A DNA stretch of 64,000 nucleotides from an uncultured archaeon (GTDB lineage: Archaea > Thermoproteota > Bathyarchaeia > TCS64), in contig CALIUM010000005.1 in assembly GCA_938048735.1 (NCBI GenBank), positions 5,525-69,524 of the forward strand, given 5' to 3'. A model generated the notes under the pieces. The model searched no databases. It saw only the letters and a list, made by a program, of their open reading frames with translations, and was not told the origin of the DNA. The position numbers and the translations under genes were made by a program. The stretch's first letter is position 1. Each line of letters starts with the position of its first letter. This document shows, one piece after another, positions 4,534-55,478 of this stretch.

Positions 4534-4583
4534 CCCCTACTCAACCTCCCCTCAAGTATCCCCTCTCTCTTCCTATGAGGGTT

Positions 4584-5719: not shown

Positions 5720-5931
5720 ATAGCTCAGGACTCCAAGGCCCGCGATGGTCTGGGGGCCGTAGGTAGCACCTGCCAGACTGTAGTACAGCCATATTTCCCT
5801 TACCCAATATATAGAAGTTATTATAAATAAATAAAGCTTTTCTCTGGGTTGACCCTCTCAGGATTGAGGTTGAACGATGTCAGAAGAGTGGAAAAGATAG
5901 AATCATAAATTTCTATTTAAACAAATTATAT

Positions 5932-6729: not shown

Positions 6730-6812
6730 AGGGTTTCACCCATTCCTACTGGCCTCTCAGAGGTCGAATATCAAGAACTTAATTTTAACTTAAGGAGGAG
6801 GAAGGAGGTTTT

Positions 6813-11398: not shown

Positions 11399-13761
11399 AG
11401 ACGCCTCCTAATGAGCCTCTCTAGTAGGGTTGGATCTGGTGATGCTATCTTCCCTTCCACCCACCCTGCTTTCTCTAGGGCGGCCACCACCTGGTCCCTC
11501 ATTGTGAAGGGTATGTCGGCGTTGCTCCTTACGTAGAGGTGGAGGTCGGGAGGCATCTCTCCGTAATACCGCTGGTAGAGGTCTATGTAGTGGCTTAGCT
11601 TAACCGCCCTTCCCTTGCTGGTGTCGTTGGGGCGCATGGTGAGCTTGGCTACCATCACGATCGCCTCCTCAACAGTCTCGGCTGCGTAGAAGAGGTGCTC
11701 CGGCGCCGGGCCAATATAAACTCTCTCTCCGGTCCTGGCGTCGTAGACCATCCAGTCCTCCTCCCTCTCCCTTCTTCCCAAGAGCATCCTCCTATACTTG
11801 GATCCATGAGGGCCCACAATGACTGGGATCCCGAGCCTCCAGCATCCCGCCGCTATGCTTGCAGCCTTCTGGGACATGGCTCCCCAGGCAACCCCCACAG
11901 CCCCAACCCTGTTGTAGATATAGTCGGCTATCTCCTCATAGTTAGCCCTTAAAGGGCGCTTGGCGAAAATATTGGCTATCTTTATAGCTGCTCCCGTTAT
12001 GTGGGCGTTGGAGATGCAGCTACCAACGTTGACAAGCCCTCCTGCGTCGAAGACCCCTGGGTACTTCTCGTAAAGGCTGAGGCCTTCCTCATCCTTCGTC
12101 ATTCCAATAGCCATCGCCGCGCATCCTGAGGCGACGACTATGAAGCGCCTCTTCAGGAACTCCTCAGCTATCCTAGCGACATCCCCCCCTCCCTCCGGGT
12201 AGTTGGCGCATCCAACAAGGGCCAACACCCCGGGGATCTCCCCGAAGACGATCGCCCTGCCCACCTCTCTTATCTCCACATCCTGGATCGCGCCTCTTCC
12301 AACCCTTATTTTAGACCTCTCTTCCGCGATCTTCTTCGATGCCGCTGCATTGATCATGCTGACTATGGGTAGATCCTCTGGACATGCGCTTTCACAGCGT
12401 CCGCAGCTCACGCAGAGATCATATAGGGATGAGAGAAGGGTGAAGTCTCCATTTCTGGCCAAGCTCATGGCTTCCATGATCGGGAGGTTGTTGGGGCAGG
12501 CTCTAGTACACTCTCCACAATGTCTACATCTCTTAGCCAACTCTCCAGACTCCTCAACTCCTAGAGGCCTCACCCCTTCTCTTCTTGGAGCTATCTTCAT
12601 CGCGACCTTTACAGCGACTTCTCCCACCTTACGGGGATCAAGTATGAGGGCGCCGGGTATCCTCCTCTCTACAAGGTCCTCGACTATTTTGTCGGGCTCA
12701 TCATGAGTTCTATCTGGGAGGCCATGACAGCTCATCTCACTCGTCGCGATTAGAGGAGACCCAATCTTCTTGCACTCTAATAGTACATCTGTCCTCACAC
12801 ATTGTTTATCTATAACCACTACATCGGGGATCCCTGATCTTATGAACCTAAGCTCCCATGATATCGGACCTATGATTCTTGCCCTCTTATTATATCTGGC
12901 CGTATCATGAGCTGTGCAGCATAATCCCCCTACCTCCACCTCTCCAAATAGCCCTTGATCCATTAAGTAATTCACTATCTCGACGCTCGGTAGCACCTCA
13001 TGCCCTATGACGAGTATCATGGGCTTCGAAGTATCTATTGCTCCGAATCCGAGATCCGCCAGTGGCGCCTCAGGCTCTCCCTTGGGAAATCCTAGGACTG
13101 AGATCTGGGCTATGTCGGCTATCTCCATTGCCACGTGGTCCAGCATGCCTACATGAAAGACCTTTGACTCGTAGTCGAGGTTGTTCCCCTCCTGACCGGT
13201 AGCGGTTGATGCTAGAAGTTGGACTATCTGGCTCTCCACATAAGATAGGGCGTCATCCAGGTCTCTCAGGGTTCTTGGCCTAAACCCGCATACGAGGCGG
13301 GTGTGAGGGGCCTCCACATTGGTATTCAGGGCGACATCGAGGGGTGTATCCCTCCCATATTCCTCGATCAGATGGTTGAGCATAGCCCTAGCATGTTCGG
13401 TATGGGCTGAAGCCCCTATGCAGCATGCTAAGAGGACAATCCTAGACTGTTGTCCAGCCATGGTTATGCCGCAGGCTCCCCTCTTATCACCTGTTAGATC
13501 GCATTTACCGAAGGTGCAGAGGCAGCATAGATCACAGAAGGGCATGTAGAAGGGCTTGTACCTGCTGAGCAGCTTAAGGTCCCATTCTCTTAGCGCTGTT
13601 ATATCCGGGAACGGTGTTGGGCCGAGGGGCTCCTCCCACTCCTCGAGGATCCTACCGACCTGTATCTCAACATCCTTGAATACTCCAAGAGTGGATGAGA
13701 ACTCCCCTATCTTCAGGCTGAGGTCTCTCTTGACCAAATCCCCACTCTCTCTAGACTCCAA
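11395..13761 (-). CDS. cdhA: ACDS alpha subunit (Ni-CODH catalytic subunit)
   Basis: 788 aa with the N-terminal Cys cluster MPFCDLCCLCTFGKCDL and ferredoxin-like CxxCxxCxxxCP motifs. The initiation codon is TTG. Confidence 0.9.
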   Translation of the reverse strand: MESRESGDLVKRDLSLKIGEFSSTLGVFKDVEIQVGRILEEWEEPLGPTPFPDITALREWDLKLLSRYKPFYMPFCDLCCLCTFGKCDLTGDKRGACGITMAGQQSRIVLLACCIGASAHTEHARAMLNHLIEEYGRDTPLDVALNTNVEAPHTRLVCGFRPRTLRDLDDALSYVESQIVQLLASTATGQEGNNLDYESKVFHVGMLDHVAMEIADIAQISVLGFPKGEPEAPLADLGFGAIDTSKPMILVIGHEVLPSVEIVNYLMDQGLFGEVEVGGLCCTAHDTARYNKRARIIGPISWELRFIRSGIPDVVVIDKQCVRTDVLLECKKIGSPLIATSEMSCHGLPDRTHDEPDKIVEDLVERRIPGALILDPRKVGEVAVKVAMKIAPRREGVRPLGVEESGELAKRCRHCGECTRACPNNLPIMEAMSLARNGDFTLLSSLYDLCVSCGRCESACPEDLPIVSMINAAASKKIAEERSKIRVGRGAIQDVEIREVGRAIVFGEIPGVLALVGCANYPEGGGDVARIAEEFLKRRFIVVASGCAAMAIGMTKDEEGLSLYEKYPGVFDAGGLVNVGSCISNAHITGAAIKIANIFAKRPLRANYEEIADYIYNRVGAVGVAWGAMSQKAASIAAGCWRLGIPVIVGPHGSKYRRMLLGRREREEDWMVYDARTGERVYIGPAPEHLFYAAETVEEAIVMVAKLTMRPNDTSKGRAVKLSHYIDLYQRYYGEMPPDLHLYVRSNADIPFTMRDQVVAALEKAGWVEGKIASPDPTLLERLIRRRL

Positions 13762-13774
13762 TCTGGTGAAATTT

Positions 13775-13795
13775 CTAGAATTATAAAGTTTTCTG
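13775..13795 (-). promoter_or_regulatory. putative archaeal BRE/TATA promoter of the cdh operon (leaderless transcript)
   Basis: On the minus strand, TTTATAA (13781-13787) is centred ~23 nt upstream of the TTG start at 13761. The region upstream is AT-rich and non-coding. Confidence 0.4.
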
Positions 13796-14060
13796 AAAGA
13801 TCTTAGGGCCTATTGGTCCACTTTCTAAATTGGAATATGTGGAAGTTATCTAACTCCATAACCTTTCTTATCAAAAGATCAGAAAAGCAGACAAGAAAGG
13901 ATATGATAATAGTTTCTACAATGAAAATGACAAAAATGAGCTATGGTTAGAGTTAAAGAATTGAAATCCCTCAAGCCTAACCAGTATACATCCAAACTAT
14001 ATGCTCCGAGATGGTGGTTCAGCATGGCCTTAGTCGTCAAACCGAGGCCTTAACCGCTCC

Positions 14061-14867
14061 TTACCACCATAAGGCCCGATATGGACCGAGGGGGGCTTTA
14101 GGGTTTAGTTTCCACACACCCAGCCGTCTGTTCAAATTTGTGTCAAGTTCATCAATTTTTGCAGCCTTATACTTGGTAACCTCTTTTGACATTACCCTTT
14201 TATCCGTCATGGCGGCTGCTCTAGCATAAATTCCCTCATTCAGAAGATATTTCAAAGCTTTGAAAGGGAGCTCGTAGAATTCCCCAATTGCACCAGTTCT
14301 TTGTGTAAAGCCTTCTGGAGTTGCAGCCTTGAAAGAAACTCTAACATAAATGAAACTCGAAAATTGTGATAGTCTTCTTACATAATCCCTATCTGAGCCG
14401 AGAAGTATACCATTAGTTTCGAGATAAAAAGGATACTTCGTTTTCCCAACATGTTCCAAGACTGAAAGAAGATGCTCCTTTCCTAATGTGGGTTCGCACC
14501 CAGATAATCTAAGCTTTTTCACTTTCCGAATAACCCTTCTCCAATAATCAGAATAAATTATCCCTTCTTCAGCTGCCTTGAAAAGATTTTGAGCAGCCTG
14601 CTTAGGAGAATAGAATTTTCCAAACTTTTCAGGAAAGTCTCCTGACCAGTTTGACCAGCAGTAAATGCACCTTAAACAACAGCCAGCTGCATAGCCTGTT
14701 GCAATCCCTTTATAAACCGGAACAGAATAAAAACCAGTGTATTTCCTTTCAAGCCCTTCATCTCCCTGCCTAGTTACAATCTTCTCAGTCTCCTTTGCTA
14801 GCTCCAATGGGTTGAAAGGCTTAAAACCTCGAGTTAAGAACCTTTGGTATTCATTCATCAAATCCAA
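14061..14867 (-). CDS. radical SAM protein, PflA/NrdG-type activase-like
   Basis: CxxxCxxC motif in context GCCLRCIYCWSNW and a SAM-binding SGCEPTL motif. Codon usage is markedly lower-GC than the flanking genes. Confidence 0.7.
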   Translation of the reverse strand: MDLMNEYQRFLTRGFKPFNPLELAKETEKIVTRQGDEGLERKYTGFYSVPVYKGIATGYAAGCCLRCIYCWSNWSGDFPEKFGKFYSPKQAAQNLFKAAEEGIIYSDYWRRVIRKVKKLRLSGCEPTLGKEHLLSVLEHVGKTKYPFYLETNGILLGSDRDYVRRLSQFSSFIYVRVSFKAATPEGFTQRTGAIGEFYELPFKALKYLLNEGIYARAAAMTDKRVMSKEVTKYKAAKIDELDTNLNRRLGVWKLNPKAPLGPYRALWW

Positions 14868-39033: not shown

Positions 39034-40071
39034 ATGGGGCTCATCCCGGTTATCCTCACATGTCCACCGGGTATAGAGGATATCGTGGAGCTTGAACTCA
39101 GGGAGTTCTTCGGAGACATCCACGTTGAGAGGCCTTTGGTGGGGGTGGAGGGAAGGGTACTAGCGGAGATACCTGAAGATAGTATCTCTAGAATATACTC
39201 AATGAGATCGATCCATCACGTGATGAAGAAGCTTAAATCATTCCAGCTTGATCCCGGAAGGGATTCATTAAGCCTTATCTACGAAGAGGTCAAGGAGGCC
39301 GACCTCTCCCCCATCCTGCAAAGAGGGGCAAAATTCAGGATAACCACGGAGAGGATCGGGATTCACAGCTTCACATCTATCGACGTCCAGAGGGTGGCCG
39401 GACAGGCTGTTGTGGATAAGTATGGCAATAAGGTCGACCTTGAAAACTATGATGTCGAGATCAGGGTCGATGTCATCAGAGACACTTGCCTTGTCGGGGC
39501 CTCGATGACCAGGGAGTCTCTTCACAGGAGGGGATACAGGGTCTTTGAGCATCCGGCGGCGCTCAAACCGACCATCGCCTATGCCATGATCAGATTGGCT
39601 CGTCCCGAGGCTGGGATGACCCTCGTCGACCCGATGTGTGGGGGTGGAACCATCCCCATAGAGGCTGCATTATTCATGGGGGAGAAACTTGAGATATACG
39701 GTCTAGATATAGAGGAATCATTCATTAAAGGCGCCCGTATGAATTCGGAGGCGGCTGGGGTGGAGGGTTTGATAACCCTGATAAGAGGTGATTGTAGATT
39801 CCTATCTAGATTTGTGAGGGATGTGGATCTCATAGTCACGAATCCCCCTTACGGAGTCAGGATGGAGCCTAGATGTAGTATAGAGAAGCTCTATAGGGCC
39901 TTCGCCAGAGAGGCGTGTAGGGCTATGAGGATTGGGGGGAGATTAGTGGTGATAACCCTTAGAGGTAGGAGGATGGAGGAGGATCTTCGGCAAGAGGGGT
40001 TCTCCATCATCCATAAACGCTCAGTCCTCCATGGAGACATCAAAGTTAAGGTTATAGTCGCTGAGAGGTAG
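39034..40071 (+). CDS. THUMP-domain class I SAM-dependent RNA methyltransferase (Trm11/Trm14/RlmL-like, m2G)
   Basis: N-terminal THUMP region and a C-terminal MTase with DPMCGGGTIPIE (motif I) and NPPYG (motif IV), 345 aa. Confidence 0.75.
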   Translation: MGLIPVILTCPPGIEDIVELELREFFGDIHVERPLVGVEGRVLAEIPEDSISRIYSMRSIHHVMKKLKSFQLDPGRDSLSLIYEEVKEADLSPILQRGAKFRITTERIGIHSFTSIDVQRVAGQAVVDKYGNKVDLENYDVEIRVDVIRDTCLVGASMTRESLHRRGYRVFEHPAALKPTIAYAMIRLARPEAGMTLVDPMCGGGTIPIEAALFMGEKLEIYGLDIEESFIKGARMNSEAAGVEGLITLIRGDCRFLSRFVRDVDLIVTNPPYGVRMEPRCSIEKLYRAFAREACRAMRIGGRLVVITLRGRRMEEDLRQEGFSIIHKRSVLHGDIKVKVIVAER

Positions 40072-40171: not shown

Positions 40172-41134
40172 TTGTTGATGGTGATGACCCTACATATATT
40201 CCCAGAGGATAGAGTTCACTTCTATTGGGATAGAGAACTTGAGCCTGTAATAAGGATATCTCCAGGAGACACAGTCTCCTACGAGCTGAGGGAGGTCTCA
40301 GACGGCCAGATAAATCCCACGTCCACCCTCGAGGTATTGAGGAAGCTAGATTGGGAGAGGGTTTACCCCCTCGCGGGGCCGGTATATGTGGAGGGGGCAG
40401 AGGTTGGAGACGCCCTTGAGGTGGAGGTACTAGATATACATCCCGGGCCCTGGGGCTGGTCCGCCATAATACCCGGCTTCGGCCTATTGGAGGATGAGTT
40501 CAGGGAGCCGAGGCTGAAGATATGGGACCTCTCTCATGGAGACCACGCCTACTTCAGGGAGGACATAAAGATCCCCCTTGAACCATTCTGCGGGACCATG
40601 GGCGTGGCTCCCAGAGAGACTGGAAAGAGAGCCGTAATGCCCCCGGGGATGCATGGAGGTAATATGGATATCAAGCACCTAACACGGGGCTCCAGGCTCC
40701 TCCTTCCGGTATGGGTGGAGGGGGCATTATTCTCCGTTGGGGATCCCCACGCGGCTCAGGGTGATGGGGAGGTGTGCGTCACAGGAATAGAGGCCCCGAT
40801 GCACCTCAGCCTGAGATTTAACCTAAGGAAGGGGCTGAGGCTGGATGCTCCTCAGTATATAACCTCTCCACGCCTTAGATGCGGGGATGAGGGGACTAGA
40901 TATCATTCAACCATCGGCATAGGCCCAGACCTCCTGGGGGCCTCCAGAGACGCGATCCGCCGAATGGTGAACTTAATAGCTGAGAGGTGGAAGATGGAGC
41001 GCTGGGAGGCCTACATACTATGCAGCGTTGTAGTGGATCTGAGGATAAGCGAGGTGGTGGACAAGCCCAACTGGATAGTCTCAGCCCATCTACCCTTATC
41101 CATATTTCAAGAAGACATGTGTCGAGAAGGATGA
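40172..41134 (+). CDS. acetamidase/formamidase family protein
   Basis: FmdA_AmdA-like sequence over the full 320 aa. Confidence 0.7.
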   Translation: MLMVMTLHIFPEDRVHFYWDRELEPVIRISPGDTVSYELREVSDGQINPTSTLEVLRKLDWERVYPLAGPVYVEGAEVGDALEVEVLDIHPGPWGWSAIIPGFGLLEDEFREPRLKIWDLSHGDHAYFREDIKIPLEPFCGTMGVAPRETGKRAVMPPGMHGGNMDIKHLTRGSRLLLPVWVEGALFSVGDPHAAQGDGEVCVTGIEAPMHLSLRFNLRKGLRLDAPQYITSPRLRCGDEGTRYHSTIGIGPDLLGASRDAIRRMVNLIAERWKMERWEAYILCSVVVDLRISEVVDKPNWIVSAHLPLSIFQEDMCREG

Positions 41135-41284
41135 CTAAAAAAGCCCAAAAACCGCTCCATCGTTTATAAAACTAAGAATTTATTTATAATTGAATATTTA
41201 ATTGATTTCGGATCCATGATCATGTCAGATAGAGGTTATATGCTGAGTATGATGGTAAAGGTTAAATAGGTATTTAAAATCTAA

Positions 41285-41698
41285 ATGATGAGAAAAGGCA
41301 TGTCTAGAGCTAGAGCCAGAGACGAGGAGATCCTTCAGGTTCTTAAAGATATAAAGGCTTTACTGGAGCCCAAACCACCGCCTCCACCCCCTCCTCCACC
41401 CCCACCTCCCCCCAAGGGCCTTTGGAACGAGTTTCTGGACTTCGTATCAAAGTACAAGGTTATGGGAATGGCCGTGGCCTTCATCCTAGGCTTATATCTG
41501 GGCACCCTTGTACAGGCACTAGTTAATGACCTGATCATGCCTATAATAACGATAATTCTACCAGGTGTTGAATGGGAAGCATTTGTGCTGGGACCGTTCC
41601 GCATCGGGCACTTCATAGGAGCCTTAATAACCTTCCTACTGGTAGCCTTCGTGGTCTTCATGTTAGTCAAGATAACAAAAAAATGGGGGATCGAATAA
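41285..41698 (+). CDS. mscL: large-conductance mechanosensitive channel with polyproline N-terminal extension
   Basis: The S1/TM1/TM2 region (LWNEFLDFVSKYKVMGMAVAFILG...DLIMPII) aligns with MscL. It is preceded by a 44 aa extension that includes 13 consecutive prolines. Confidence 0.7.
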   Translation: MMRKGMSRARARDEEILQVLKDIKALLEPKPPPPPPPPPPPPPKGLWNEFLDFVSKYKVMGMAVAFILGLYLGTLVQALVNDLIMPIITIILPGVEWEAFVLGPFRIGHFIGALITFLLVAFVVFMLVKITKKWGIE

Positions 41699-42322
41699 CA
41701 TCCAAATTTATTTCAAATCATAATTTTGAAATCATGTTTAATGACTAGATTAGAATTGAAACGTTAGACTACAATAACACTTTTTGGAATATATTCTTAA
41801 GTTATTAGGCGATAATTTTAAGTTTTCATCTTATAATATGATTTATCTAGGAAAAAACTTGTTAGAAAAATGATTCAATTTCTTATTTCTAAAATTTAGT
41901 TCTGAATGGATTTGGACATTAATTTACTTTAATATAAATTCTAAAAGTTCTATTTTTATGATTTTGAGGAATTCTTCCATAATAATCCTAATGATTTTAC
42001 TATTTATTTGTTTTTTAATTTTTCTATTTATTGATGTGTAAGCATTATTATGAGTTTAGGGTAAAGACAAGTAATGTAAAGGTTTGGAATATTTGACAAT
42101 CATTCACCGCATCCCTCTAGCAACGGGGGGTGTAACTAAAGCTATTCTATAACCCCTCCTCCAGCGCCAACTATGCCCAAAAAGACCTTTGTCATTCCTC
42201 TAAAATAATTAGACTTATTAAAGGTTTGGGATATTTGAAGCGGAGGCCAAGACTCTTTATTCGAAAGGTTTAAATATAGCGGTTTCTGCCGATTCTGGAT
42301 TTGAAGAGGAGGATTAAAAATC

Positions 42323-42727
42323 ATGGAAAATGAAATGAAAAAGGAAGTTAAAATACTTGAAGACTGTATGAAAGTTGCTGAACATGAAAATCTTATTTGG
42401 GTTTGTGATGGAGCTGCAAACGTGGGTCAAGTGGGCCAGGCAATTGGTGTTTTGCTCTCAAACTTGGATAAGGGACGAATGTGTTGTACAGTAGCCGTAG
42501 CAGCTGGCTCTAAGCGTCATCTAGAGATAGCTGAAAAAGCGAAAAAGAACATAGTTATAAATGGGTGCGCAAATAGATGCGCTTCCAAAGTTTTAGAGAA
42601 TGCTGGAAAGAAAATAAACTATGAAATAATCATATCTAAGTATTTGCAAAAGGTTCCCACACTTGACATCTATATGGGTGACGCGAAGAAGATAGCCCAA
42701 ATAATAATTGAAGAAGCCAAGCTTTAA
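42323..42727 (+). CDS. DGC-domain putative zinc-binding protein
   Basis: 134 aa with conserved WVCDGAANVGQ and NGCANRCASK Cys/Gly motifs. The gene is AT-rich. Confidence 0.5.
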   Translation: MENEMKKEVKILEDCMKVAEHENLIWVCDGAANVGQVGQAIGVLLSNLDKGRMCCTVAVAAGSKRHLEIAEKAKKNIVINGCANRCASKVLENAGKKINYEIIISKYLQKVPTLDIYMGDAKKIAQIIIEEAKL

Positions 42728-43360
42728 GAATGAAAAAAGCAGGATACGTAAAGGCAGCTAATTTATAAAGTGCCCATATTTCTCTATTTTATATAAAGTG
42801 TGGTTCTGTTGACTGTTCTTATAACCCCTTACATAGCAAATAAAATACGATAATACGATAAATCTTTATTTCAGGTGAGTTTAGCTACTTCATGCTCTGT
42901 TGTAGGTGGGACTTTTTAGCAAAAGGTATCAAAGTTGATATTAATGGGACCACGAAACCCATGGCGGTTGTAAATTGGATGGTTATTCCCCATATATTGA
43001 ATAGTGTTACTAAAAAAGGAGATATAGACATTGTCTAAATCCCCCCTCTTTTCATAATTAGCAATCCAACAGCAGTTATAAATCACTGAACCTCCAACAC
43101 AAAGAAATCTTATTTATAGTCAGAATAATCACTGGAGCAACTTCCACATCCAAAAGACCACCTGTCATAATTGCTCTAAGGTATCCCAAGACAATTCTTC
43201 GCATATTTTTAAACTCATCTTCATCAATGTTCAGGGAATTCGTGCCCCCTAGTCTTAACATGAGAATTTAAACCTTCTTCCTAGATGAAAACCTAACTAA
43301 AAACTAAAAAGACAATAATTTGAGATTATTTAGGGAAAACCGCCAAAAAAGGCAATCTTG

Positions 43361-43398
43361 AGTAGTGCAGTGGTGGGATTAGAACCCACGGAGGACTA
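43361..43398 (-). repeat. partial tRNA-Leu 3'-half copy (att-like direct repeat)
   Basis: agtgc..ggtgggattagaacccacggaggact matches 27/28 nt of the 3' half (variable arm + T-arm) of tRNA-Leu(CAG) located 3.6 kb away, in the same orientation. Confidence 0.5.
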
Positions 43399-43528
43399 AA
43401 ACTTTGAAAAATTATGTCGCATATAACTCTACAAAAACAAGATTTAAAGAACTTCGCCATACCTTTTTCAAAGTGTTAGTTCCTATATGTTCTATTAACA
43501 ATGACTAAAGGAATGAAGTTTGCATGTT

Positions 43529-46500
43529 TTAGGGGCTATTCTGGGGGCTTTTTCGAAGTAGGAGTTCTTGGTATTCCGAGTTTATTTTTCCGTATTTTTC
43601 TTTGACGGTTCTGCTGATTTTATGCCAGTCTTGGATTATTTTTGGCCATAGCTCGCTGGTTATTAGCTGTTTTGTCACGTATTCTTTTAATGATTTTTCC
43701 CGTTTAATTGTTCTTTGGCGCCAGTCAAAGCTTATGAGTCCTGCACGTTTCAAATGTTGAATTGTGTGACCTATTTGGTCGTAATTAAGTGGGTGATCCA
43801 TGCTTATTGCTAAGTCTTCTAGGATGGAGTCAATTGTTATTTGGTCTTCTGCGCGCAGACAGATGTTGGCTATAACTGTTTGGATGATCCTCGTAGTCTT
43901 GGTAAGGTATATCCCAATCCTCTTTGGCGGGATAAGGGTTTGTTCTAGGCGGTAGCTATACCTCCTGTAAAACCAGCTTTTGATGATTTCGGCCAGTGTC
44001 AAATAGGTGCCTAGAATCGCGGCTAGGGCTATGAAGAAAGTTGCTGGAGGCTTTACAAATCTGAAAATTTCTCCTAATGGCGTGTAAGGAATTATCAACG
44101 CGAATGTTATTATTGCTATGCTGCTGAGGAGCACAAGTCGACTCGGCTTGCTTTTCCAGAAAGGCAACCTTTTTGTTCTAATGACAAAGATTATAAGAGT
44201 CTGTGAAGTTAGGGATTCGATGAACCAAGCGGTTTGAAACAGTTGCTCATAAGCGTTAAAGATAAAAAGCATTATAAAGAATGTTAGAAAGTCGAAGATG
44301 GAGCTGACAGGTCCGAGGCACACCATGAACTGTCTAATGAAGTGTATATCCCACCTTTTAGGCTTTTCAATGTATTCTTGGTCAACCTCGTCCGTGGATA
44401 TTGTTGACTGCGAAAAGTCATAGAGCAAATTGTTGAGCAATATCTGTATGGGTAGCATGGGCAGGAAGGGCAGAAACAATGATGCGCCGGCAACGCTGAA
44501 CATGTTTCCGAAGTTTGAGCTCACGCTCATCATGATATACTTCATAGTGTTGCCGAAGGTTTTCCTACCATCCAAAACACCGTCATAAAGCACTCTCAAA
44601 TCGTTCTGCAAAAGAATTATGTCAGCGGATTCCTTTGCAACATCAACAGCGTTTTCCACAGATATGCCAATGTCCGCGCTTTTTAGGGATGGCGCATCGT
44701 TAATCCCATCCCCTAGAAACCCAACAACGTGTCCATTACCCTTTAAAGCATTCATTATTCTGTCCTTCTGGGCTGGTGTAACCCTGCAGAACACATTTGC
44801 TTCTTCGACAACTCTTGCAAGGGCGTCATCATGCATTTGGGCAATCTCGCTTCCAGTGACTATTCCTTTTATATCAAAGCCGAGGTGTTCGCAAACCTTC
44901 CTTGTTACCAGTTCATTATCACCTGTGAGAATTTTCAGCTCTATGCTAGCATTTTTCAGAAGCTGCAAGGTTTCTCTCGCTGTTTCTTTAGGAGGGTCAA
45001 GAAAAGCTACGAATCCCAAAAACACCAGCTCTTTCTCGTCATTTGCTGTATATGTTGGCTTGTCCTCTCTTAAGCGCTTGTAGGCTACGGCTAGGACCCT
45101 ATAGCCTTCAGCACTAAGCTCAACATATTTCTGCTCAATTTTTCTGCGTACTTCATCTGTTATGTCGACTATAACCTCTCCAACCTCATAGAAGGAGCAA
45201 ATCTTGGCAACCTCTTCTGGAGCCCCCTTTGTGACCATGAACCGTTGACTCTGATATTCAACAACTATGGAGAGCCTTCTACGAACAAAATCAAAAGGCA
45301 CCTCATCAATCTTCTTATAATTTTCAACATCTACCTCTCTAAATCTTAGTATAGCCTCGTCTAAGGGGCTTTTAATTCCAGTTTGGTAGTGGCTGTTGAG
45401 GTAGGAATAAAGCAGAACCTTATCGTTTTCGTCGCCGTTAAGATCCACATGTAGGACAAGCTTTATCCGGTTTTCCGTCAAAGTCCCAGTTTTATCCGTG
45501 CATAGAATATCCATACTTCCAAAATCTTGTATCGCTGTCAAGCGCTTCACAATCACGTCCTTCTTAGCCATCGACACTGCTCCTTTAGAGAGGTTTACTG
45601 TAATTATCATCGGCAAAAGTTCCGGCGTTAATCCCACAGTCAAAGCTACAGCGAAGAGAAGCGAATCAAGCACGCTTCGCATGTAAAGGGCATTAATGAA
45701 GAACACAAATATGACTAGCAGAAAAGTTACTTGCATTATCATGTAACCAAAACTTCGAATACCCCTCTGGAACTCCGTCTCAACCTCTCTTTCCACAAGC
45801 TTCCCCGCAATTTTCCCATACTCTGTTAGGCTACCAGTTTTCATGACAACAGCAGTTGCTGTCCCGCTCACAACAGAAGTGCCCATAAAAAGATAGTTGC
45901 TCCACTCCGTTATAGACGGGTCATAGGATTTCAGCGGCAAGCCAGTCTTCTCAACTGGAAAAGATTCACCAGTCAATGCAGATTGGTTCACGAATAAGTC
46001 TTTTGCACTTATAACTCGGGCGTCTGCAGGCACAAGGTCGCCTGCTGAAAGGAATATAATGTCTCCGGGGACAACCTCTGCAAGCCTAACCTCTCTTTTG
46101 GTGCCATCCCTCAAAACGGTGGCCGTTGTCGCCACCCTCTGCTTCAGCATTTCAGCCGCCCTTTCAGCCTTAGATTCTTGATAAAAGCCCAAGACTGCGC
46201 TGACCATCACTATAACAAATATAATAGCTGTGTTCGCAACTTCACCAAAAAAGCCTGAAATCAGCCCAGCGATAAGGAGAATTATTATCAACGGACTTTT
46301 GAAATGGGAAAGGAACTCGATGATGACTGCTCTCCTCTTTTTTCTAACAAGCTCATTATAGCCAAAAAATTCAAGACGCCTTTCTGCTTCCTCAGAGGAA
46401 AGCCCATCCATTGAAGACTTCAAGCGTGAAAGAAGCTCTTCAACAGGCGAAGTTAAAACTTCTTCAGCGCTCGGCAGAGCCCAGCCTAAAACTTCGCCAA

Positions 46501-46543
46501 TACTTGACCTTTCTAAATCCTGAACCACCATCATTCCCACCAT
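43529..46543 (-). CDS. mgtA: Mg2+-importing P-type ATPase (MgtA family) with ~150 aa C-terminal extension
   Basis: P-type ATPase motifs (TGES, DKTGTLT, TGDN, GDGxNDxP) and MgtA-like N-terminus. 1004 aa versus ~900 aa typical. The gene is AT-rich. Confidence 0.85.
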   Translation of the reverse strand: MVGMMVVQDLERSSIGEVLGWALPSAEEVLTSPVEELLSRLKSSMDGLSSEEAERRLEFFGYNELVRKKRRAVIIEFLSHFKSPLIIILLIAGLISGFFGEVANTAIIFVIVMVSAVLGFYQESKAERAAEMLKQRVATTATVLRDGTKREVRLAEVVPGDIIFLSAGDLVPADARVISAKDLFVNQSALTGESFPVEKTGLPLKSYDPSITEWSNYLFMGTSVVSGTATAVVMKTGSLTEYGKIAGKLVEREVETEFQRGIRSFGYMIMQVTFLLVIFVFFINALYMRSVLDSLLFAVALTVGLTPELLPMIITVNLSKGAVSMAKKDVIVKRLTAIQDFGSMDILCTDKTGTLTENRIKLVLHVDLNGDENDKVLLYSYLNSHYQTGIKSPLDEAILRFREVDVENYKKIDEVPFDFVRRRLSIVVEYQSQRFMVTKGAPEEVAKICSFYEVGEVIVDITDEVRRKIEQKYVELSAEGYRVLAVAYKRLREDKPTYTANDEKELVFLGFVAFLDPPKETARETLQLLKNASIELKILTGDNELVTRKVCEHLGFDIKGIVTGSEIAQMHDDALARVVEEANVFCRVTPAQKDRIMNALKGNGHVVGFLGDGINDAPSLKSADIGISVENAVDVAKESADIILLQNDLRVLYDGVLDGRKTFGNTMKYIMMSVSSNFGNMFSVAGASLFLPFLPMLPIQILLNNLLYDFSQSTISTDEVDQEYIEKPKRWDIHFIRQFMVCLGPVSSIFDFLTFFIMLFIFNAYEQLFQTAWFIESLTSQTLIIFVIRTKRLPFWKSKPSRLVLLSSIAIITFALIIPYTPLGEIFRFVKPPATFFIALAAILGTYLTLAEIIKSWFYRRYSYRLEQTLIPPKRIGIYLTKTTRIIQTVIANICLRAEDQITIDSILEDLAISMDHPLNYDQIGHTIQHLKRAGLISFDWRQRTIKREKSLKEYVTKQLITSELWPKIIQDWHKISRTVKEKYGKINSEYQELLLRKSPQNSP

Positions 46544-46952
46544 CCATTCTCGCCGAACAACCTCCAGGGGCTGGACTCTTACATTCTTGCAAAGATACCA
46601 TCATAAAATTCTTTCCTCAACTCCATAGTTAAAACTGACAATAGTTTCTGTTAGGAGACACTAATGGAAAAGTGCTCCTTGAGAAGCAACGCTGTAATAT
46701 GCGGATCAGAATTCTAACCCATAGGTGAAATCCACTTCTCATCGTTACTTCCCGTAAGAGAAGATCTAACTCACAAAGAAAGGAAAAGTGCACCATGCAA
46801 TGTAGATTGTAAACCATGCACACGATACGCTAATGGAAAATGCATCGGATGCCCAACAACAATCAATTTAGAGGAACACTCTAAGAAAATGGAAGAGTGG
46901 AAAAATGAGCTTCTTTAGCCAAAATAACCTCGTATAAGGCTTTATTTTTTTA

Positions 46953-47035
46953 GTGCGGGGGGTGGGATTCGAACCCACGGAGGACTCATCCAGCAGGTCC
47001 TGAACCTGCCCCCTTTGGCCCCTCGGGAACCCCCG
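46953..47035 (-). tRNA. tRNA-Leu (anticodon CAG)
   Basis: Acceptor GCGGGGG/CCCCCGC, anticodon arm GCAGG-UUCAGGA-CCUGC, long variable arm, T-arm GUGGG-UUCGAAU-CCCAC, discriminator A. No intron. Confidence 0.85.
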
Positions 47036-47047
47036 CCTTTTAGGATT

Positions 47048-52495: not shown

Positions 52496-52658
52496 TTAGC
52501 CCACCTATTCAAGGCCAGCCAATAACTATTTAATGTTATCCAATCTTTCCTCCATAAATTAAGTATCATTTGAAGATGTCATCGTATAACTTGAAATAAT
52601 AATTAAGTCCAGAGTCTTGACACTCCCATGGCTTAAGCCTGTGGGATTCTCGGTTTTT

Positions 52659-52847
52659 CTAGGCATGACCTTTCATCATACCGAACTCGGGCTGTGTCAA
52701 ATCAGCCCCTGCTATGGACGTATAGCCCATAGCCCGCTTAAGGATGTTCAAGGCTCCGTTATAGTCCGCATGACATGAGTAGCCGCAGTTTAAGCATCTA
52801 AAGGAGCCTCCGACTCGAAGCCCCTCATACCCGCTGATCCTCGCCAT
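52659..52847 (-). pseudogene. C-terminal remnant of an IS200/IS605-family TnpB (OrfB) transposase-associated nuclease
   Basis: 62 aa with the TnpB zinc-finger/RuvC-III signature FRCLNCGYSCHADYNGALNIL. An in-frame stop lies immediately upstream and no N-terminal part is detectable. Confidence 0.5.
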
Positions 52848-53156
52848 TTTATCATAAACTCATGACTTTTGCTTAAGCATTTATTAGAAGACTGAGCTTG
52901 TAGCGATTAACAGGGAGGCCCTCTGGAGGGATCCACTCCTTGTTTAGAGGGTCAAGCCATAGATGCATACCTAAGCCTATGTCGTCAATGTTTTCGGGCT
53001 TAATCTTTATTTGGTTCGGGAATGTTTCCCCCGTTGTCGAACCCAGATTAAGTATATGGCTCGCAGATCCATACAAGTTACATTCCTTCAACTATTCATA
53101 TGTTATAACGAAAAGGTTATATATTAACATATATTAACATTTTTGGAGAAATAACA

Positions 53157-53435
53157 ATGTCTGATGATGATATTGCCTTAAAAGAGGCTGTGGAAGAGGC
53201 GTTACGTGGCGTTCTAGATCCCGAGCTTGGGGCTAGCTTGATGGATTTGGGGATGATCAAAAGTGTAACTGTTAAGGATGGTATCGCGACAATCGAGATG
53301 ATGTTGACAACACCCTTCTGCCCGCTAGCGATGCAATTAACATCCGATGTGATGAGGGCTGCTGAGGGAGTTAAAGGTATAGTGAGGGCGGAGGTCAAAA
53401 TCGTAGAGTTCGGCTTTTCTCCTTTTCAAAGATAG
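53157..53435 (+). CDS. DUF59/MIP18-family Fe-S cluster assembly protein (SufT-like)
   Basis: 92 aa. The motif DPELGxSLxDLGMI...TPFCP is characteristic of DUF59. Confidence 0.6.
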   Translation: MSDDDIALKEAVEEALRGVLDPELGASLMDLGMIKSVTVKDGIATIEMMLTTPFCPLAMQLTSDVMRAAEGVKGIVRAEVKIVEFGFSPFQR

Positions 53436-54207
53436 TATTGACGTTTCGGAAAATGCTGTTAGTTCCAGGAACGCGCGTTAAAAAAGGGGATCATCTGCAT
53501 GGAATGAAAGATGTACAAATAATATGTAACAGGTTAGAATTACAGAATAAAATTATTCTGGGTTTTGGTGTAGGGGATGGTAGTTCAAGTTTTCTTCTTC
53601 TTAACGGAAAAGGGGTCTTTTGATATCTCTTGATCATGATATAAAAATACCCTAAAAGGGTTGAAATGGGAAACGATACTAAAAGGTCATGCTAATTCAG
53701 AGGATGGAAGGTATTTCTTTCAAAAGAGATTCGTTGGATATGGTTTTTCCCAGATATTTTATGCATTGTGTTGTGGCTTATGTTAGATATTTTCAGGAGT
53801 TGGAGCGAGTCATCGATCCGGAAGCGGAAATCGTATTAATAGACCTTTGTCTTAATGGTAAAAGATTTTTGGACAAGGGTCATTTTGGCAAGACTTCATC
53901 CATATTGTGTTGTGGCATACTCCCAAGATATTAACTAATATATAAAATTAATTGGGATCGAAATTCGTCATTAAAGTCGTTTAAAGCTAAATACTATATC
54001 AAACCATAAGCTTAAGAGTTATATTCATAACAAATTGAAATTCATTATTAAAAGAAAATGTTAACATAATAAAAGGAAAAAGAAACTTCTATATTTTATA
54101 TATCAATCATTAAGATAAGTGAAGTAGAAAAGTCAAAATGAGAACAAGAAAGAGGTGTCACGAAACTGTCAAGTGTGATGCCAAAAGAACTTGCTCTCTA
54201 ACAAAGT

Positions 54208-55233
54208 TTATGAGCCCTTTGAACTTGTAAAGCGATGCTTTGTTTTCGCCGCTATCTTTACGAACGCTAGCATGGATGGCACCTCCCAGAGTGGACCTAC
54301 TGCCGTGGCAAGAGCTGCGCCTGAGCCCACACCGAAGACTGTTATGGCCGTGGCGATCGCGACTTCAAATTGTGTTCCTGAGCTGATGAAGGCGATGGTT
54401 ACGGCATCTCTATATTGGAAACCGAGAAACCAGGGTATGATGTAAAAAAGCGAAGCCATTAGGAAGAAGTGAGCTAGTAAAGGAGCCGATATCAAGCCAA
54501 CCAAAAGGGGCTGCTCTGCAATTATCTCACCCTTTAAAGAAAATAGAACTATAATGGTTACAAGTAGCGCTACGACTGCTATATTACCTATAATCGGTTG
54601 AAACCTTACTTTAAACCAGATTTCTCCCCTCTTCTTAAATAAAATCCATCTTGTAGTCTGACCTAAGGCTAACGGCAAACCGACAAAGAGAATGACGCTT
54701 TTAGCTATAGGATCTATAGGAATTGGAATGCCGCCTACACCCAAGTATAAGGCTGCTAAGGGAGTGTAAAGTATGAGCGTTGACAAGGCGTTGATGGCGG
54801 TAATTACTACACCTTTGGCGACATCCCCTCCAGCCAGAAGGATCCAGAATAGGACCATGCCTGTGCAAGGCGCTATACCGAGGAGGATTACGCCAGCTGT
54901 AAACTGAGGATAGCTGTTAAGGAAGAGGCGGGCGAGGAGTGTCATGAGGGCTGGAGCCACCACCCAGTTGCCAACCAACGTGAGGATTGCTGGTTTAGGA
55001 GACTTGGCTGCTTTAACCAATTCCTTAAATTCTATGCTCGCCATGGTGGGATACATTATGAAAAAAAGAGCAACACCCATTGGAATCGAGATACCGCTAA
55101 CTTGAAGCTGTTCAATCCATACACCCAACATTGGGGCGAGCTTCCCTAGAAGGAGGCCCAAGACCATTGACATGATAACCCATACAGTCGTGTACTTCTC
55201 TAATTTCCCAAGGGTTGGACGGGACTGCATCAA
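54208..55233 (-). CDS. arsB: arsenite efflux transporter ACR3
   Basis: 10-TM BART-fold permease with the ACR3 conserved LGIAPCTGMV cysteine motif, 341 aa. Confidence 0.8.
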   Translation of the reverse strand: MMQSRPTLGKLEKYTTVWVIMSMVLGLLLGKLAPMLGVWIEQLQVSGISIPMGVALFFIMYPTMASIEFKELVKAAKSPKPAILTLVGNWVVAPALMTLLARLFLNSYPQFTAGVILLGIAPCTGMVLFWILLAGGDVAKGVVITAINALSTLILYTPLAALYLGVGGIPIPIDPIAKSVILFVGLPLALGQTTRWILFKKRGEIWFKVRFQPIIGNIAVVALLVTIIVLFSLKGEIIAEQPLLVGLISAPLLAHFFLMASLFYIIPWFLGFQYRDAVTIAFISSGTQFEVAIATAITVFGVGSGAALATAVGPLWEVPSMLAFVKIAAKTKHRFTSSKGS

Positions 55234-55329
55234 GCCTGTGCCTTCACTCTCTTTTATTTTCCACTAGCTAAAGTAGGATTTTTATGAGATCATATGCATA
55301 AAGGGCGGTTTTTATATTTATTTATTAAA

Positions 55330-55402
55330 AGCCCCGGGCGGGATTCGAACCCGCGGCCAACAACTTACGAGGCTGCCGCTCTGGCCACTGAGCTACCGGG
55401 GC
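55330..55402 (-). tRNA. tRNA-Thr (anticodon CGU)
   Basis: Acceptor GCCCCGG/CCGGGGC, D-arm GCUC-AGUGGCCA-GAGC, anticodon loop CUCGUAA, T-arm GCGGG-UUCGAAU-CCCGC, discriminator U, 73 nt. Confidence 0.85.
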
Positions 55403-55478
55403 CCTCAACTATTCCTGGGGATAAGCCCATCTTTAAGAATATATCGCGGCCTTGAGGGGTGTGGGTCCGCGTTTTGGG

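Follow-up and report, generated by a model that had tools for sequence, protein, structure and literature searches.

A tRNA-Leu(CAG) 3' fragment, probably an att-site scar, in a decayed tRNA-linked island of an uncultivated Bathyarchaeia lineage

The tRNA-Leu(CAG) gene and its orphan 3' copy

We analysed a stretch of 64,000 nucleotides (the window) from an uncultured archaeon of the Bathyarchaeia, and all coordinates below are positions in this window. The minus strand carries an intact tRNA-Leu(CAG) gene at 46954-47036 (Rfam score 47.7 bits, gathering score 29; ARAGORN limits 46953-47036), orthologous to the tRNA-Leu(CAG) genes at two comparison loci, L093 and L001. Downstream of its 3' end lie, in order, a truncated regulator pseudogene, the gene for an MgtA-type P-type ATPase, an orphan copy of the 3' part of the same tRNA, and a gene with a DGC domain. 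We read the intact tRNA gene as the target of integration, on the attL side, and the orphan copy as an att scar. Outside this island, the window also contains an intron-containing tRNA-Leu(UAA) gene (1183-1289, plus strand), recognised from an Rfam tRNA score of 40.5 bits and from its sequence.

The orphan copy occupies 43363-43397 (35 nt, minus strand), and the proximal copy occupies 46951-46986 (36 nt, minus strand), made up of the last 33 nt of the tRNA and the 3-nt trailer CTA. In a local alignment, the two share 32 identities over 36 aligned positions, with three mismatches and one gap of a single base; a 26-nt core (43372-43397 and 46961-46986) is identical at 25 of 26 positions. The sequence-only reading had reported a direct repeat in the same orientation at 43361-43398 and 46951-46988, and we find both the repeat and its orientation as described, with the orphan downstream of the tRNA 3' end. 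Because tRNA-Leu(CAG) is encoded on the minus strand, the plus-strand text at both places is the reverse complement of the tRNA 3' part. The repeat runs from the 3' side of the variable arm through the T arm, the 3' strand of the acceptor stem, and the discriminator base to the trailer CTA. In the orphan, the T-loop is mutated (G to T at a conserved purine position) and the acceptor strand is decayed.

The similarity between the copies exceeds what a T-arm motif would give by chance: three sites in the window matched in a pattern search allowing up to three mismatches, and the expectation from 100 dinucleotide-preserving shuffles was 0.00. A third match, at 1254-1279 on the opposite strand, was rejected as a fragment because it lies inside the complete tRNA-Leu(UAA) gene. 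Neither ARAGORN, run with and without intron search, nor Rfam, even at E <= 5, calls a tRNA at 43361-43398, and the 5' half of a tRNA, including the acceptor 5' strand, is absent upstream of the orphan. The fragment is non-functional and belongs to no complete, split, or intron-containing tRNA. Positions 41950-43530, orphan included, recur at 100% identity in an independent Logan assembly (L092, from run ERR9287632).

The best match of the orphan is tRNA-Leu(CAG) (25/26), compared with 24/28 for tRNA-Leu(UAA) and 18/19 for tRNA-Arg(CCT), which a 19-nt T-arm part of the orphan matches within the window. On IMG/VR viral contigs, a scan with the 26-nt core hit tRNA-Ser genes only, apparently phage-encoded; it occurs exactly in 21 such genes. 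The core is generic to tRNAs with a long variable arm; the assignment of the orphan to tRNA-Leu(CAG) rests on sequence similarity over the whole 36 nt together with proximity, not on the core alone.

Extent and content of the insertion

The locus L093, from the sister genome of the window (85 to 97% amino acid identity over seven shared genes), contains an empty site. The genes there are MscL, a 109-bp spacer, tRNA-Leu(CAG), and GcvH, in the same order as in the window. By blastn, the two genomes are collinear up to 41715 and again from 46953, so that collinearity breaks exactly at the 3' end of tRNA-Leu(CAG) and the whole insertion, 41716-46952, places 5,237 bp where L093 has 109 bp. The GC content of the insert is 0.28 to 0.45, compared with approximately 0.52 in the flanks. 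At the same tRNA, L001 carries a different insert of 2.5 kb with VapBC. The exact GcvH protein, which we looked up in a search for strain variants, is not on record.

The insert does not end at the orphan. Foreign, low-GC DNA continues for 1.65 kb beyond it, forming a distal segment at 41716-43362 (GC 0.333 in the GC profile) that includes the DGC-domain gene, which encodes a putative zinc-binding protein (42323-42727, plus strand; Pfam DGC, E = 8.7e-22). Only 42308-42742 of this segment is common to another locus (L095, 88%). The true distal end of the insert, at 41716, lacks a copy of the repeat; local alignments with the tRNA and with the L093 and L094 spacers revealed no second tRNA-Leu fragment in 41600-43360. 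Since the insert as defined by the empty site extends 1.65 kb past the orphan, the orphan marks a junction inside a composite island or, alternatively, the outer limit of only a part of it. Terminal inverted repeats around the DGC segment, suggested by two pairs from a repeat search, were not significant in a shuffle test of end-to-end inverted-repeat pairs (p = 0.056).

On the other side of the orphan, a spacer at 43398-43528 leads to the ATPase stop codon. The roughly 40 nt of it nearest the gene (43485-43528) recur in conserved form at other ATPase loci, and the remainder, which is unique, has a GC content of 0.285 and contains a 17-nt inverted repeat (43395-43411 and 43464-43480). The ATPase itself (43529-46543, minus strand, 1004 aa) is a predicted Mg2+-translocating enzyme with Pfam E1-E2_ATPase and related domains, and it scores 994 bits against the NCBIfam equivalog TIGR01524, for which the cut-off is 610.75. 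Upstream lies a conserved region (46544-46672, minus strand), delimited by blastn at other loci and by a 10-locus alignment, which is carried along with the gene. In it are a TATA-like element, AATTTTATGA, and two palindromes, TTAGTGTCTCCTAACAG and GTTATCATTTAAC. Rfam searches of the ATPase leader and of the DNA around the orphan detected neither a riboswitch nor any other family.

Homologs of the ATPase at 80 to 91% identity occur in many archaeal metagenome-assembled genomes (MAGs). Across 80 metagenome loci, DNA homology ends at approximately 43485 and 46672 and reaches neither repeat, so the homologous unit consists of the gene with about 125 bp upstream and about 40 bp downstream. The GC content of the ATPase gene is 0.435, compared with 0.522 for the genome, and it is 89 to 91% identical in protein and 90 to 92% identical in DNA to genes in unrelated contexts, including one in a MAG labelled Brockarchaeota; this composition and identity show that the gene was recently acquired by horizontal transfer. 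At other loci, the GC content of the gene differs from that of its flanks by no more than about 7 points, and mostly by far less; in the window it lies about 9 points below them, the largest gap of this kind among the loci.

The surroundings of the ATPase at other loci contain tRNA genes and, in one case, an integrase. In 6 of 47 loci, a tRNA gene on the same strand lies less than 1 kb ahead of the ATPase, where about 0.6 would be expected by chance. These tRNAs are of three kinds (Gly-GCC, Leu-UAG, and Ser-CGA); tRNAs that lie downstream of the ATPase within 1 kb are on the opposite strand only. At L009, an ATPase gene 89% identical to the one in the window lies approximately 520 bp (measured between called genes) from a degraded Phage_integrase gene (E = 6.1e-19). 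We found no tRNA repeats flanking the ATPase at other loci. An apparent tRNA-Thr fragment and a weak integrase-like match at L013 were rejected on inspection.

Between the ATPase cassette and the tRNA lies a pseudogene of an Lrp/AsnC-family regulator with a Cys-rich tail (46625-46915, plus strand); the bracketed segment had been thought to hold nothing other than the P-type ATPase gene, which the pseudogene contradicts. About 90 C-terminal codons are left and about 106 N-terminal codons are missing, and frame analysis shows that the reading frame is interrupted by a stop codon (46715-46717) and shifted ahead of the ancestral terminus ...RGTL*. The best phmmer match among 1.84 billion representative proteins has 78% identity (E = 2.4e-19), tblastn gives 67% identity across 79 aa, and the homologs carry Pfam HTH_AsnC-type and AsnC_trans_reg domains. 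The contig of the closest homolog also encodes Prim-Pol, a Cdc6-like AAA protein, and a Phage_integrase gene; two further contigs with regulator homologs (L097 and L098) are too short to show gene context.

We also compared the DNA next to both repeat copies with the native surroundings of this tRNA. The trailer CTA follows all three tRNA-Leu-type 3' ends in the window, compared with CCA in relatives, and neither window copy is adjoined by the native trailer CCATT(C/T)T, which is conserved in L093 and L094. Aligned at equal offset, the 40 nt beyond the orphan and the native tRNA-Leu spacer of L094 agree in 29 of 40 positions (p about 0.01-0.02), and the flank of the intact tRNA is weakly similar to the same spacer (p = 0.0015). 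Neither flank resembles the native spacer of L093. Because both flanks are weakly similar to the L094 spacer, these comparisons are equivocal between the histories considered below.

Origin of the island

Our searches for an integrase were negative throughout. Pfam found no integrase domain in the island ORFs, tblastx against all loci found no integrase remnants in 46544-46952 or 41699-43528, and tblastn with the integrase domain of L009 gave nothing significant in the window. Iterated phmmer and hmmsearch found no integrase among 5,976 stop-to-stop ORFs, and PHROGs found no integration or excision family among 55 window ORFs. In six-frame translations and tblastn, no integrase-like ORF runs into either repeat copy; the ORFs beside the repeats are those of the regulator pseudogene, and the remainder is non-coding, AT-rich DNA.

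The 3.6-kb segment between the copies, for which viral or circular contexts had been proposed as a check, was found on no viral contig, plasmid, or phage record, and in no circular form; other loci share just the gene and its promoter, and none of the 80 metagenome loci compared has the same repeat-bracketed unit. An IMG/VR scan with an acceptor-containing pattern returned eight contigs, several of them tailed-virus contigs with orphan tRNA-Leu-like 3' ends. The T-loop of these ends differs (TTCAAAT), no integrase lies near them in the stretches retrieved and inspected, and the variant carried by our orphan has no match in IMG/VR.

The sequence-only reading had seen in the repeat the classic attL/attR pair left by integration into a tRNA 3' end. 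The geometry, the empty site, the foreign composition, and the transferred cargo agree with integration at this tRNA; the lack of an integrase in the 64-kb window, the failure to find the unit elsewhere, and the foreign DNA beyond the orphan do not agree with a classic element. What the sequences show is not an element that can be recognised by its two ends and a recombinase of its own.

We consider it likely that the orphan is an att-site scar inside a decayed, composite, and immobile tRNA-linked genomic island. This is an ordinary, decayed island rather than a live mobile element, and the fragment persists in it as a passive relic; an att scar in a tRNA-linked island is an already known kind of feature. 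We infer a tyrosine recombinase origin of the repeat and the following order of events. A mobile element with a tyrosine-type integrase would have recombined its attP with the last ~36 nt of tRNA-Leu(CAG), a site that starts at the variable arm, includes the T arm and the acceptor 3' strand, and ends 3 nt outside the gene. Conservative site-specific recombination would have restored an intact tRNA beside GcvH, with foreign DNA downstream, and left a second, non-functional copy of the tRNA 3' part at the far side. Later decay and remodelling would have removed the integrase and the element backbone and truncated the regulator gene next to the tRNA, now a pseudogene. Abutting this pseudogene is an mgtA cassette that is self-contained, being made up of a promoter/operator, the gene, and a short 3' tail, and further foreign DNA with the DGC gene lies beyond the fragment.

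Background from other archaea is consistent with this history. Crenarchaeal att sites are 29 to 69 bp long (PMC6563490), and integrases that target tRNA-Leu and tRNA-Ser use longer att sites that include the variable arm (PMC6972569); the 36-nt extent of the repeat fits archaeal att sites and thus supports its reading as an att scar. The homologs of the ATPase and the regulator near integrases elsewhere also argue for links to integrative elements.

The composite structure may have arisen in two ways. By accretion, two successive insertions would have occurred at the same tRNA, the fragment would be the displaced 3' end of the first, and the outermost att copy would have been lost by deletion. 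Alternatively, a single insertion would end at the fragment, and the DGC segment would have been inserted separately. We slightly favour accretion, for which the low GC past the fragment, the absence of the native trailer, and the presence of CTA at all three 3' ends argue; arrays of elements that re-use a single att site are known (PMC6563490). Accretion requires an additional deletion, since no att copy marks the island's distal end. The similarity of the fragment's flank to the L094 spacer points weakly in the opposite direction, to a native attR. Homology with other ATPase loci ends before either repeat is reached; the ATPase may therefore be a later arrival in an older island, brought in by a different route.

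The alternative that survives best, which we nonetheless regard as doubtful, is that 43399-46950 is one discrete element whose ends are the repeat copies (attL and attR) and whose sole cargo is the ATPase, so that an integrase supplied in trans could in principle still excise it. The two copies do bracket the segment in the same orientation, and the resemblance to the L094 spacer would make the fragment the displaced native 3' end. Against a discrete element, we found no integrase, the segment is pieced together from a regulator pseudogene and an ATPase cassette with conserved limits of its own (43485-46672), low-GC foreign DNA continues past the fragment, the 7-nt native trailer of L093 and L094 is not beside it, and no copy of the unit was found elsewhere. 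Moreover, the copies differ at 4 of 36 positions, including the T-loop, and would therefore be poor recombination substrates.

It is unlikely that the insertion arose with no site-specific recombinase at all, by illegitimate or homology-facilitated recombination or by double-strand-break repair at the tRNA, with the 36-nt duplication as a by-product of, for example, staggered-end fill-in or slipped repair. The absence of an integrase fits such an origin, and so does a neighbouring island at tRNA-Thr(CGT) (52516-55329), which was inserted exactly at the tRNA 3' end with just a 4-nt AGCC repeat and thus indicates that tRNA-end insertions lacking long att repeats occur in this genome. The fusion of the ATPase cassette to a truncated regulator likewise indicates that the island interior has undergone illegitimate joins. 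However, textbook attP x attB recombination yields just such a duplication, beginning inside the variable arm and ending 3 nt outside the gene, which is atypical of end joining; its length matches archaeal att sites, and the ATPase gene and regulator homologs occur near integrases elsewhere.

Very improbable, in our judgement, is an import of the fragment with the foreign DNA, as a piece of the donor's tRNA-Leu locus and not as a copy made in situ. The fragment's trailer does differ from the native one, and tRNA genes adjoin the ATPase in several other genomes. There, however, the same-strand tRNAs precede the ATPase and do not follow it; none of the 80 loci is homologous further than about 45 nt past the stop codon, which is short of the fragment; and a donor tRNA downstream of the gene would show its 5' half first, which is absent.

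The remaining explanations, a chance T-arm match, a part of another tRNA gene, or a target-site duplication of a casposon or transposon, are effectively refuted: T arms are conserved, the T-arm part matches tRNA-Arg(CCT), the core recurs in tRNA-Ser genes on viral contigs, and casposons of Methanosarcina are known at tRNA-Leu 3' ends (PMC4779613), but the match extends past the T arm on both sides and is expected zero times in shuffles, no tRNA is called at the fragment, and the island ORFs scanned contain no Cas1, PolB, or transposase domain, with no significant terminal inverted repeats around the DGC segment.

Known systems and meaning

The att-scar reading places the locus beside the tRNA-linked islands and cryptic elements of archaea, which arise by tyrosine-recombinase integration at tRNA 3' ends (PMC6563490; reviewed in PMC8371274); elements integrated at such ends were described by She et al. 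(2002), as cited in PMC6563490. The window island resembles them in its position directly 3' of an intact tRNA, a direct repeat of the tRNA 3' part at what may be a boundary, a repeat length within the crenarchaeal range, an atypical composition, an accessory cargo gene, an empty site in a close relative, and the re-use of a single tRNA for several insertions. It differs in lacking integrase, replication, viral, or conjugation genes; approximately 5 kb is left, with two unrelated accessory genes and one pseudogene, one end has no att copy, and the copies have diverged. The island is a relic and is not classifiable into any family of mobile genetic elements.

Plasmids of the pTN3 and pT26-2 types in Thermococcales and Methanococcales share with it a tRNA-Leu target (Cossu et al., 2017, PMC5495485; Badel et al., 2019, PMC6972569), and their att sites at Leu and Ser tRNAs include the variable arm. 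In the window island, by contrast, it is the 3' part of the tRNA that is used, no split halves of a suicidal-type integrase lie over the repeats, pT26-2 and pTN3 core genes are missing, and the host belongs to the Bathyarchaeia. To our knowledge, no such integrase has been characterised in Bathyarchaeia. Integration of the SSV type (type I, or suicidal) would explain a trapped element decaying in place at a tRNA, but no int(N) or int(C) integrase parts overlap either copy. Target-site duplications of casposons are about 14-15 bp long, not 36. Family 2 casposons of Methanosarcina target the 3' end of tRNA-Leu, as here (PMC4779613), and tandem insertions are known (PMC6563490); the window island is unlike them in having no Cas1 or PolB in the ORFs scanned and a 36-nt repeat in place of a short target-site duplication.

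Two further observations concern tRNA genes in these genomes. In the JBBIVO01 genome, which is the outgroup to the sister pair formed by the window and L093, a ~45-kb segment is inverted, with breakpoints at the 3' end of tRNA-Leu(CAG) and at tRNA-Leu(UAA) (junctions in L001 and L094), and the two tRNA-Leu genes are oppositely oriented. The copies are identical over no more than about 17 nt at the crossover. This is too short for ordinary homologous recombination, a pattern that Cossu et al. attribute to an integrase in tRNA-bounded inversions (PMC5495485). In addition, a second transporter island, with ACR3, lies exactly at the 3' end of a tRNA-Thr.

A bolder proposal, which we think improbable, is that a trans-acting Bathyarchaeial tyrosine recombinase uses the last ~14-36 nt of tRNA-Leu genes with long variable arms as a recombination site of general use, both loading promoter-equipped transporter cassettes of the mgtA kind downstream of tRNAs and flipping the ~45-kb segment between tRNA-Leu(CAG) and tRNA-Leu(UAA). 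If so, the CTA trailer of all three tRNA-Leu-type ends would be the footprint of att arms derived from elements.

For annotation, the fragment should not be recorded as a tRNA, 41716-46952 should be marked as an island, and 46625-46915 as a pseudogene. The 36-nt candidate att sequence can serve as a probe for the integrases of Bathyarchaeia elements, and AGTCCTCCGTGGGTTCGAATCCCACCCCCCGCACTA is the sequence with which to seek orphan att copies and attP. The locus is a clean illustration of the gain of a Mg2+-transporting P-type ATPase, at a tRNA-Leu gene, by an uncultivated lineage of Bathyarchaeia. Together, the inversion, the ACR3 island, and the mgtA cassette suggest that tRNA 3' ends are main points of entry and rearrangement in these genomes.

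An orphan copy of a tRNA-Leu 3' end

The sequence-only reading described a plus-strand direct repeat at 43361-43398 and 46951-46988 and assigned the second copy to tRNA-Leu(CAG). Both texts are present as it gave them, and ARAGORN and Rfam find a tRNA-Leu(CAG) gene at the second site (46953-47036 by ARAGORN; 46954-47036 by Rfam, 47.7 bits). Because this gene is on the minus strand, the plus-strand repeat text is the reverse complement of the tRNA 3' part. The similarity is far above chance: local alignment of 43363-43397 with 46951-46986 gave 32 identities, 3 mismatches, and one 1-nt gap, and the 26-nt core is identical at 25 of 26 positions. Mapped onto the tRNA, the repeat begins on the 3' side of the variable arm (AGTCCTCC), takes in the T arm, the acceptor 3' strand, and the discriminator, and ends with CTA, the three bases past the tRNA-Leu(CAG) gene end.

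The other copy, at 43363-43397, is an orphan: neither ARAGORN, whether or not introns are allowed, nor Rfam at E ≤ 5 detects a tRNA there, which rules out membership in another tRNA gene. The acceptor 5' strand is absent upstream, a conserved purine of the T-loop is changed from G to T, and the acceptor strand is decayed. Allowing up to three mismatches, the repeat pattern occurs at three sites in the window, versus 0.00 expected from 100 dinucleotide-preserving shuffles. The third site (1254-1279, opposite strand) is part of a complete, intron-containing tRNA-Leu(UAA) gene (1183-1289, plus strand; Rfam 40.5 bits), missed by a first ARAGORN scan and recovered by eye and Rfam; the intron position is identical in its ortholog on L094, a contig of the related JBBIVO01 MAG. 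The stretch 41950-43530 is also present, at 100% identity, in an independent Logan assembly (L092). Between the fragment and the ATPase stop codon lies a 17-nt inverted repeat (43395-43411 and 43464-43480; 94% complementary, 52-nt loop), one arm of which touches the fragment's edge; perhaps it is a terminator hairpin or what is left of a recombination site.

The island and its empty site in a sister genome

GC content falls from ~0.52-0.57 to 0.28-0.45 between ~41.5 and 47.0 kb; the low-GC stretch thus reaches well past the fragment. The region encodes a THUMP methyltransferase (39034-40071), a formamidase (40172-41134), MscL (41285-41698, plus strand), and a DGC-domain protein (42323-42727, plus strand), followed past the fragment by a 1004-aa P-type ATPase (43529-46543, minus strand; TIGR01524 Mg2+-translocating equivalog, 994 bits), tRNA-Leu(CAG), GcvH, and GcvT. 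The MscL homolog has 13 consecutive prolines in an N-terminal extension (KPPPPPPPPPPPPPKG). The earlier statement that the 3.6-kb segment between the repeat copies holds only the ATPase gene is nearly right, except that a pseudogene of an Lrp/AsnC-family regulator (46625-46915, plus strand) sits in the 409 bp separating the ATPase start from the tRNA. This pseudogene retains the C-terminal ~90 codons with a Cys-rich tail; ~106 N-terminal codons are missing, 46715-46717 is an in-frame stop, and a frameshift precedes the ancestral ...RGTL-stop end. Copies of the DGC gene 75-91% identical to the window's occur in many archaeal metagenome contigs, as with the ATPase, and its 88% DNA homology to another DGC locus (L095 7986-8418) covers the gene length only; it looks like a further gene-sized unit moving between genomes.

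A GcvT-based scan identifies the host as a member of Bathyarchaeia. Two informative contigs, L093 and L094, were reached through formamidase homologs. The first (GCA_038852475.1) comes from the window's sister genome: seven genes share 85-97% amino acid identity, and the order THUMP, formamidase, MscL, tRNA-Leu(CAG), GcvH, GcvT is the same. By blastn it is collinear to window position 41715 and again from 46953, with 109 bp between these stretches versus 5,237 bp in the window. The tRNA-Leu(CAG) locus of L093 is an empty site, from which it follows that the inserted DNA is 41716-46952, more than the 3.6 kb between the repeats. Another indel lies nearby: L093 has two extra genes, of the DUF4332/HHH_5 and MS_channel families, between formamidase and MscL (10948-12898, corresponding to window 41113-41241).

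Within the clade, the 3' flank of tRNA-Leu(CAG) varies, being empty in L093 and occupied by 2.5 kb in L001 (another JBBIVO01 contig) and 5.2 kb in the window. The L001 insert (11634-14162), directly 3' of the tRNA, encodes an MraZ/MazE-like (VapB-like) antitoxin, a PIN-domain toxin, and a 240-aa ORF without a Pfam match; it contains no tRNA fragment.

The ATPase cassette and links to integrative elements

Homologs 80-91% identical to the ATPase occur in many MAGs, whose source labels include Bathyarchaeia, Brockarchaeota, Thermoproteota, Nitrososphaerota, Methanomethylicota, and Desulfurococcaceae; the closest relatives, in unrelated contexts, share 92% (L010) and 91% (L009) DNA identity. In the window, the gene's GC content is ~9 points lower than its flanks, the largest such gap among the loci, whereas elsewhere it is within ~7 points of the flanks and mostly much nearer. 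Judged by composition, this gap indicates a recent arrival from a donor with ~44% GC. Across 80 metagenome loci, DNA homology with the window stops at ~43485 and ~46672, never extending to the repeats, and tRNA fragments bracket the ATPase at no other locus. The unit common to these loci is the gene with a ~40-nt 3' tail and ~125 nt upstream. This upstream region (46544-46672, minus strand) is kept in six or more other loci. A TATA-like AATTTTATGA and two palindromes, TTAGTGTCTCCTAACAG and GTTATCATTTAAC, lie within it; the region matches no Rfam family and looks like a promoter/operator travelling with the gene. Gene, upstream part, and tail are a self-contained expression cassette. Its upstream limit falls exactly where the regulator pseudogene is truncated, which suggests that the cassette was joined to an older island piece by an illegitimate event. 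ATPase residues ~865-1004 (43529-43950, minus strand) form a C-terminal extension of ~130-140 aa, past the Cation_ATPase_C domain and the end of the TIGR01524 model; judged by length, it appears to be present in ~1000-aa homologs and not in ~885-aa ones.

A search for the 3.6-kb segment in circular or viral contexts, which the sequence-only reading had proposed, returned no viral contig, plasmid, or phage record carrying it. Although the ATPase came in by horizontal transfer, the segment around it does not recur as a unit. Neither a gene nor a remnant of an integrase was found in the island or the 64-kb window.

Other loci provide indirect links to integrative elements. At L009, an ATPase 89% identical to the window's lies ~520 bp (between called genes) from a degraded Phage_integrase gene upstream of it (7104-7760, minus strand; E = 6.1e-19), a tyrosine recombinase with an intact catalytic domain in one frame and an N-terminal part broken by stops and frameshifts; no tRNA lies near it. 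The contig with the best homolog of the regulator pseudogene also encodes Prim-Pol, a Cdc6-like AAA protein, and a Phage_integrase. Among the 47 loci with enough upstream sequence, six have a same-strand tRNA ≤1 kb ahead of the ATPase (~0.6 expected by chance), three different tRNAs being represented.

In IMG/VR, the 26-nt core matched only tRNA-Ser genes, apparently phage-encoded, and the fragment's own sequence variant had no match. A pattern that took in the acceptor strand matched eight contigs, several with orphan tRNA-Leu-like 3' ends in tailed-virus contigs; all have a T-loop unlike the window's, and the stretches inspected around them show no integrase. Three orphan ends carry the CTA trailer (L120 1722-1746, L122 584-608, and L123 6846-6870). 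All three contigs are from tailed viruses and encode terminase, portal, and capsid proteins; in them, GTGGGTTCAAATCCCACCCCCCGCA followed by CTA stands between structural genes, outside any tRNA; the ends are possible attP sites or relics.

Probable recombination at the tRNA-Leu genes

The simplest account of the repeat is that the attP of an element recombined with the last ~36 nt of tRNA-Leu(CAG). Such conservative site-specific recombination would rebuild the tRNA and leave a second copy of its 3' part; subsequent decay would have removed the integrase, reduced the regulator to a pseudogene, and left the repeat copies differing at 4 of 36 positions. Archaeal integrases favor the 3' ends of tRNA genes; the 5' limit of the site varies, and att may reach outside the gene (PMC8371274); crenarchaeal att sites are 29-69 bp (PMC6563490), and in Leu and Ser tRNAs att takes in the variable arm (PMC6972569). 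The extent of the window repeat fits these known sites. We consider the fragment to be probably an att scar in a decayed composite island. Of the proposed attL/attR arrangement, integration at a tRNA 3' end is supported, and a discrete 3.6-kb element with the ATPase alone is not.

Illegitimate insertion with incidental duplication of the tRNA end is an unlikely alternative to this att scar, although a neighboring low-GC island speaks for it. That island (52516-55329) sits exactly at the 3' end of tRNA-Thr(CGT) (55329-55403, minus strand) and has no counterpart in L093 or L001. It encodes ACR3 for arsenite efflux (54208-55233; TIGR00832, 310 bits) and FeS_assembly_P (53157-53435), alongside what remains of a TnpB/Cas12f TNB domain (52659-52847); its junctions show a 4-nt AGCC repeat only, with no tRNA fragment. 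Import of the fragment together with donor DNA is highly improbable, given that homology with every other locus ends short of the fragment and that tRNAs near the ATPase in other genomes are upstream or on the opposite strand. Chance, another tRNA, or target-site duplication by a casposon or transposon is rejected on the shuffles, the tRNA scans, and an inverted-repeat test.

Within the att-scar reading, we slightly favor accretion, with the fragment as the internal junction of two insertions. Low GC runs on past the fragment, and the 7-nt native trailer CCATT(C/T)T, common to L093 (CAG) and L094 (UAA), is beside neither window copy. CTA follows both window tRNA-Leu genes and the fragment (46951-46953, 1290-1292, and 43363-43365), whereas encoded CCA follows the CAG and UAA types in the three related loci L093 (13464-13466), L001, and L094; the CTA trailers may have been left by att arms that came from elements. 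Arrays re-using one att site are documented (PMC6563490). However, accretion requires an extra deletion because there is no att copy at 41716. A single event with the fragment as a native outer attR might be favored by a 40-nt stretch beyond it that weakly resembles the equally placed part of the L094 spacer (29/40, p ~0.01-0.02); yet the intact tRNA's flank also weakly resembles that spacer (p = 0.0015), and neither flank matches L093.

The tRNA-Leu genes also bound a rearrangement. By tblastx, L001 (JBBIVO01 contig 12) matches the window in order from 61177 back to the 3' end of tRNA-Leu(CAG); past its own insert, the match continues at window 1477-8151 with the relative orientation reversed. 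A reciprocal junction, predicted beforehand, was then found in L094 (contig 30), which reads formamidase, MscL, ~110 bp, tRNA-Leu(UAA, intron) on the minus strand, and tRNA-Arg(CCT). These junctions (window 1183-1289, plus, and 46954-47036, minus; L001 11548-14162; L094 11145-11634) imply inversion of ~45 kb between the oppositely oriented tRNA-Leu(CAG) and tRNA-Leu(UAA). JBBIVO01 is inverted relative to the window, and relative to L093 at its single observable (MscL-tRNA-GcvH) junction. Since the MscL-side trailer CCATT.T remains beside MscL and the A/G difference in the T-loop goes with the anticodon, the crossover falls within the last ~14-17 nt of the genes. So short a tract would neither mislead an assembler nor suffice for ordinary homologous recombination, which in Thermococcus kodakarensis was detected only at ≥500 bp, according to work cited in PMC5495485. 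The pattern is like that of the Thermococcus inversions ascribed to an integrase by Cossu et al. (PMC5495485).

Read as an att scar, the feature belongs to a well-known kind, the decayed tRNA-linked genomic island. Some added value comes from the comparison with the empty site, from a 36-nt candidate att sequence that elements of Bathyarchaeia may use, and from the inversion bounded by tRNA-Leu genes.
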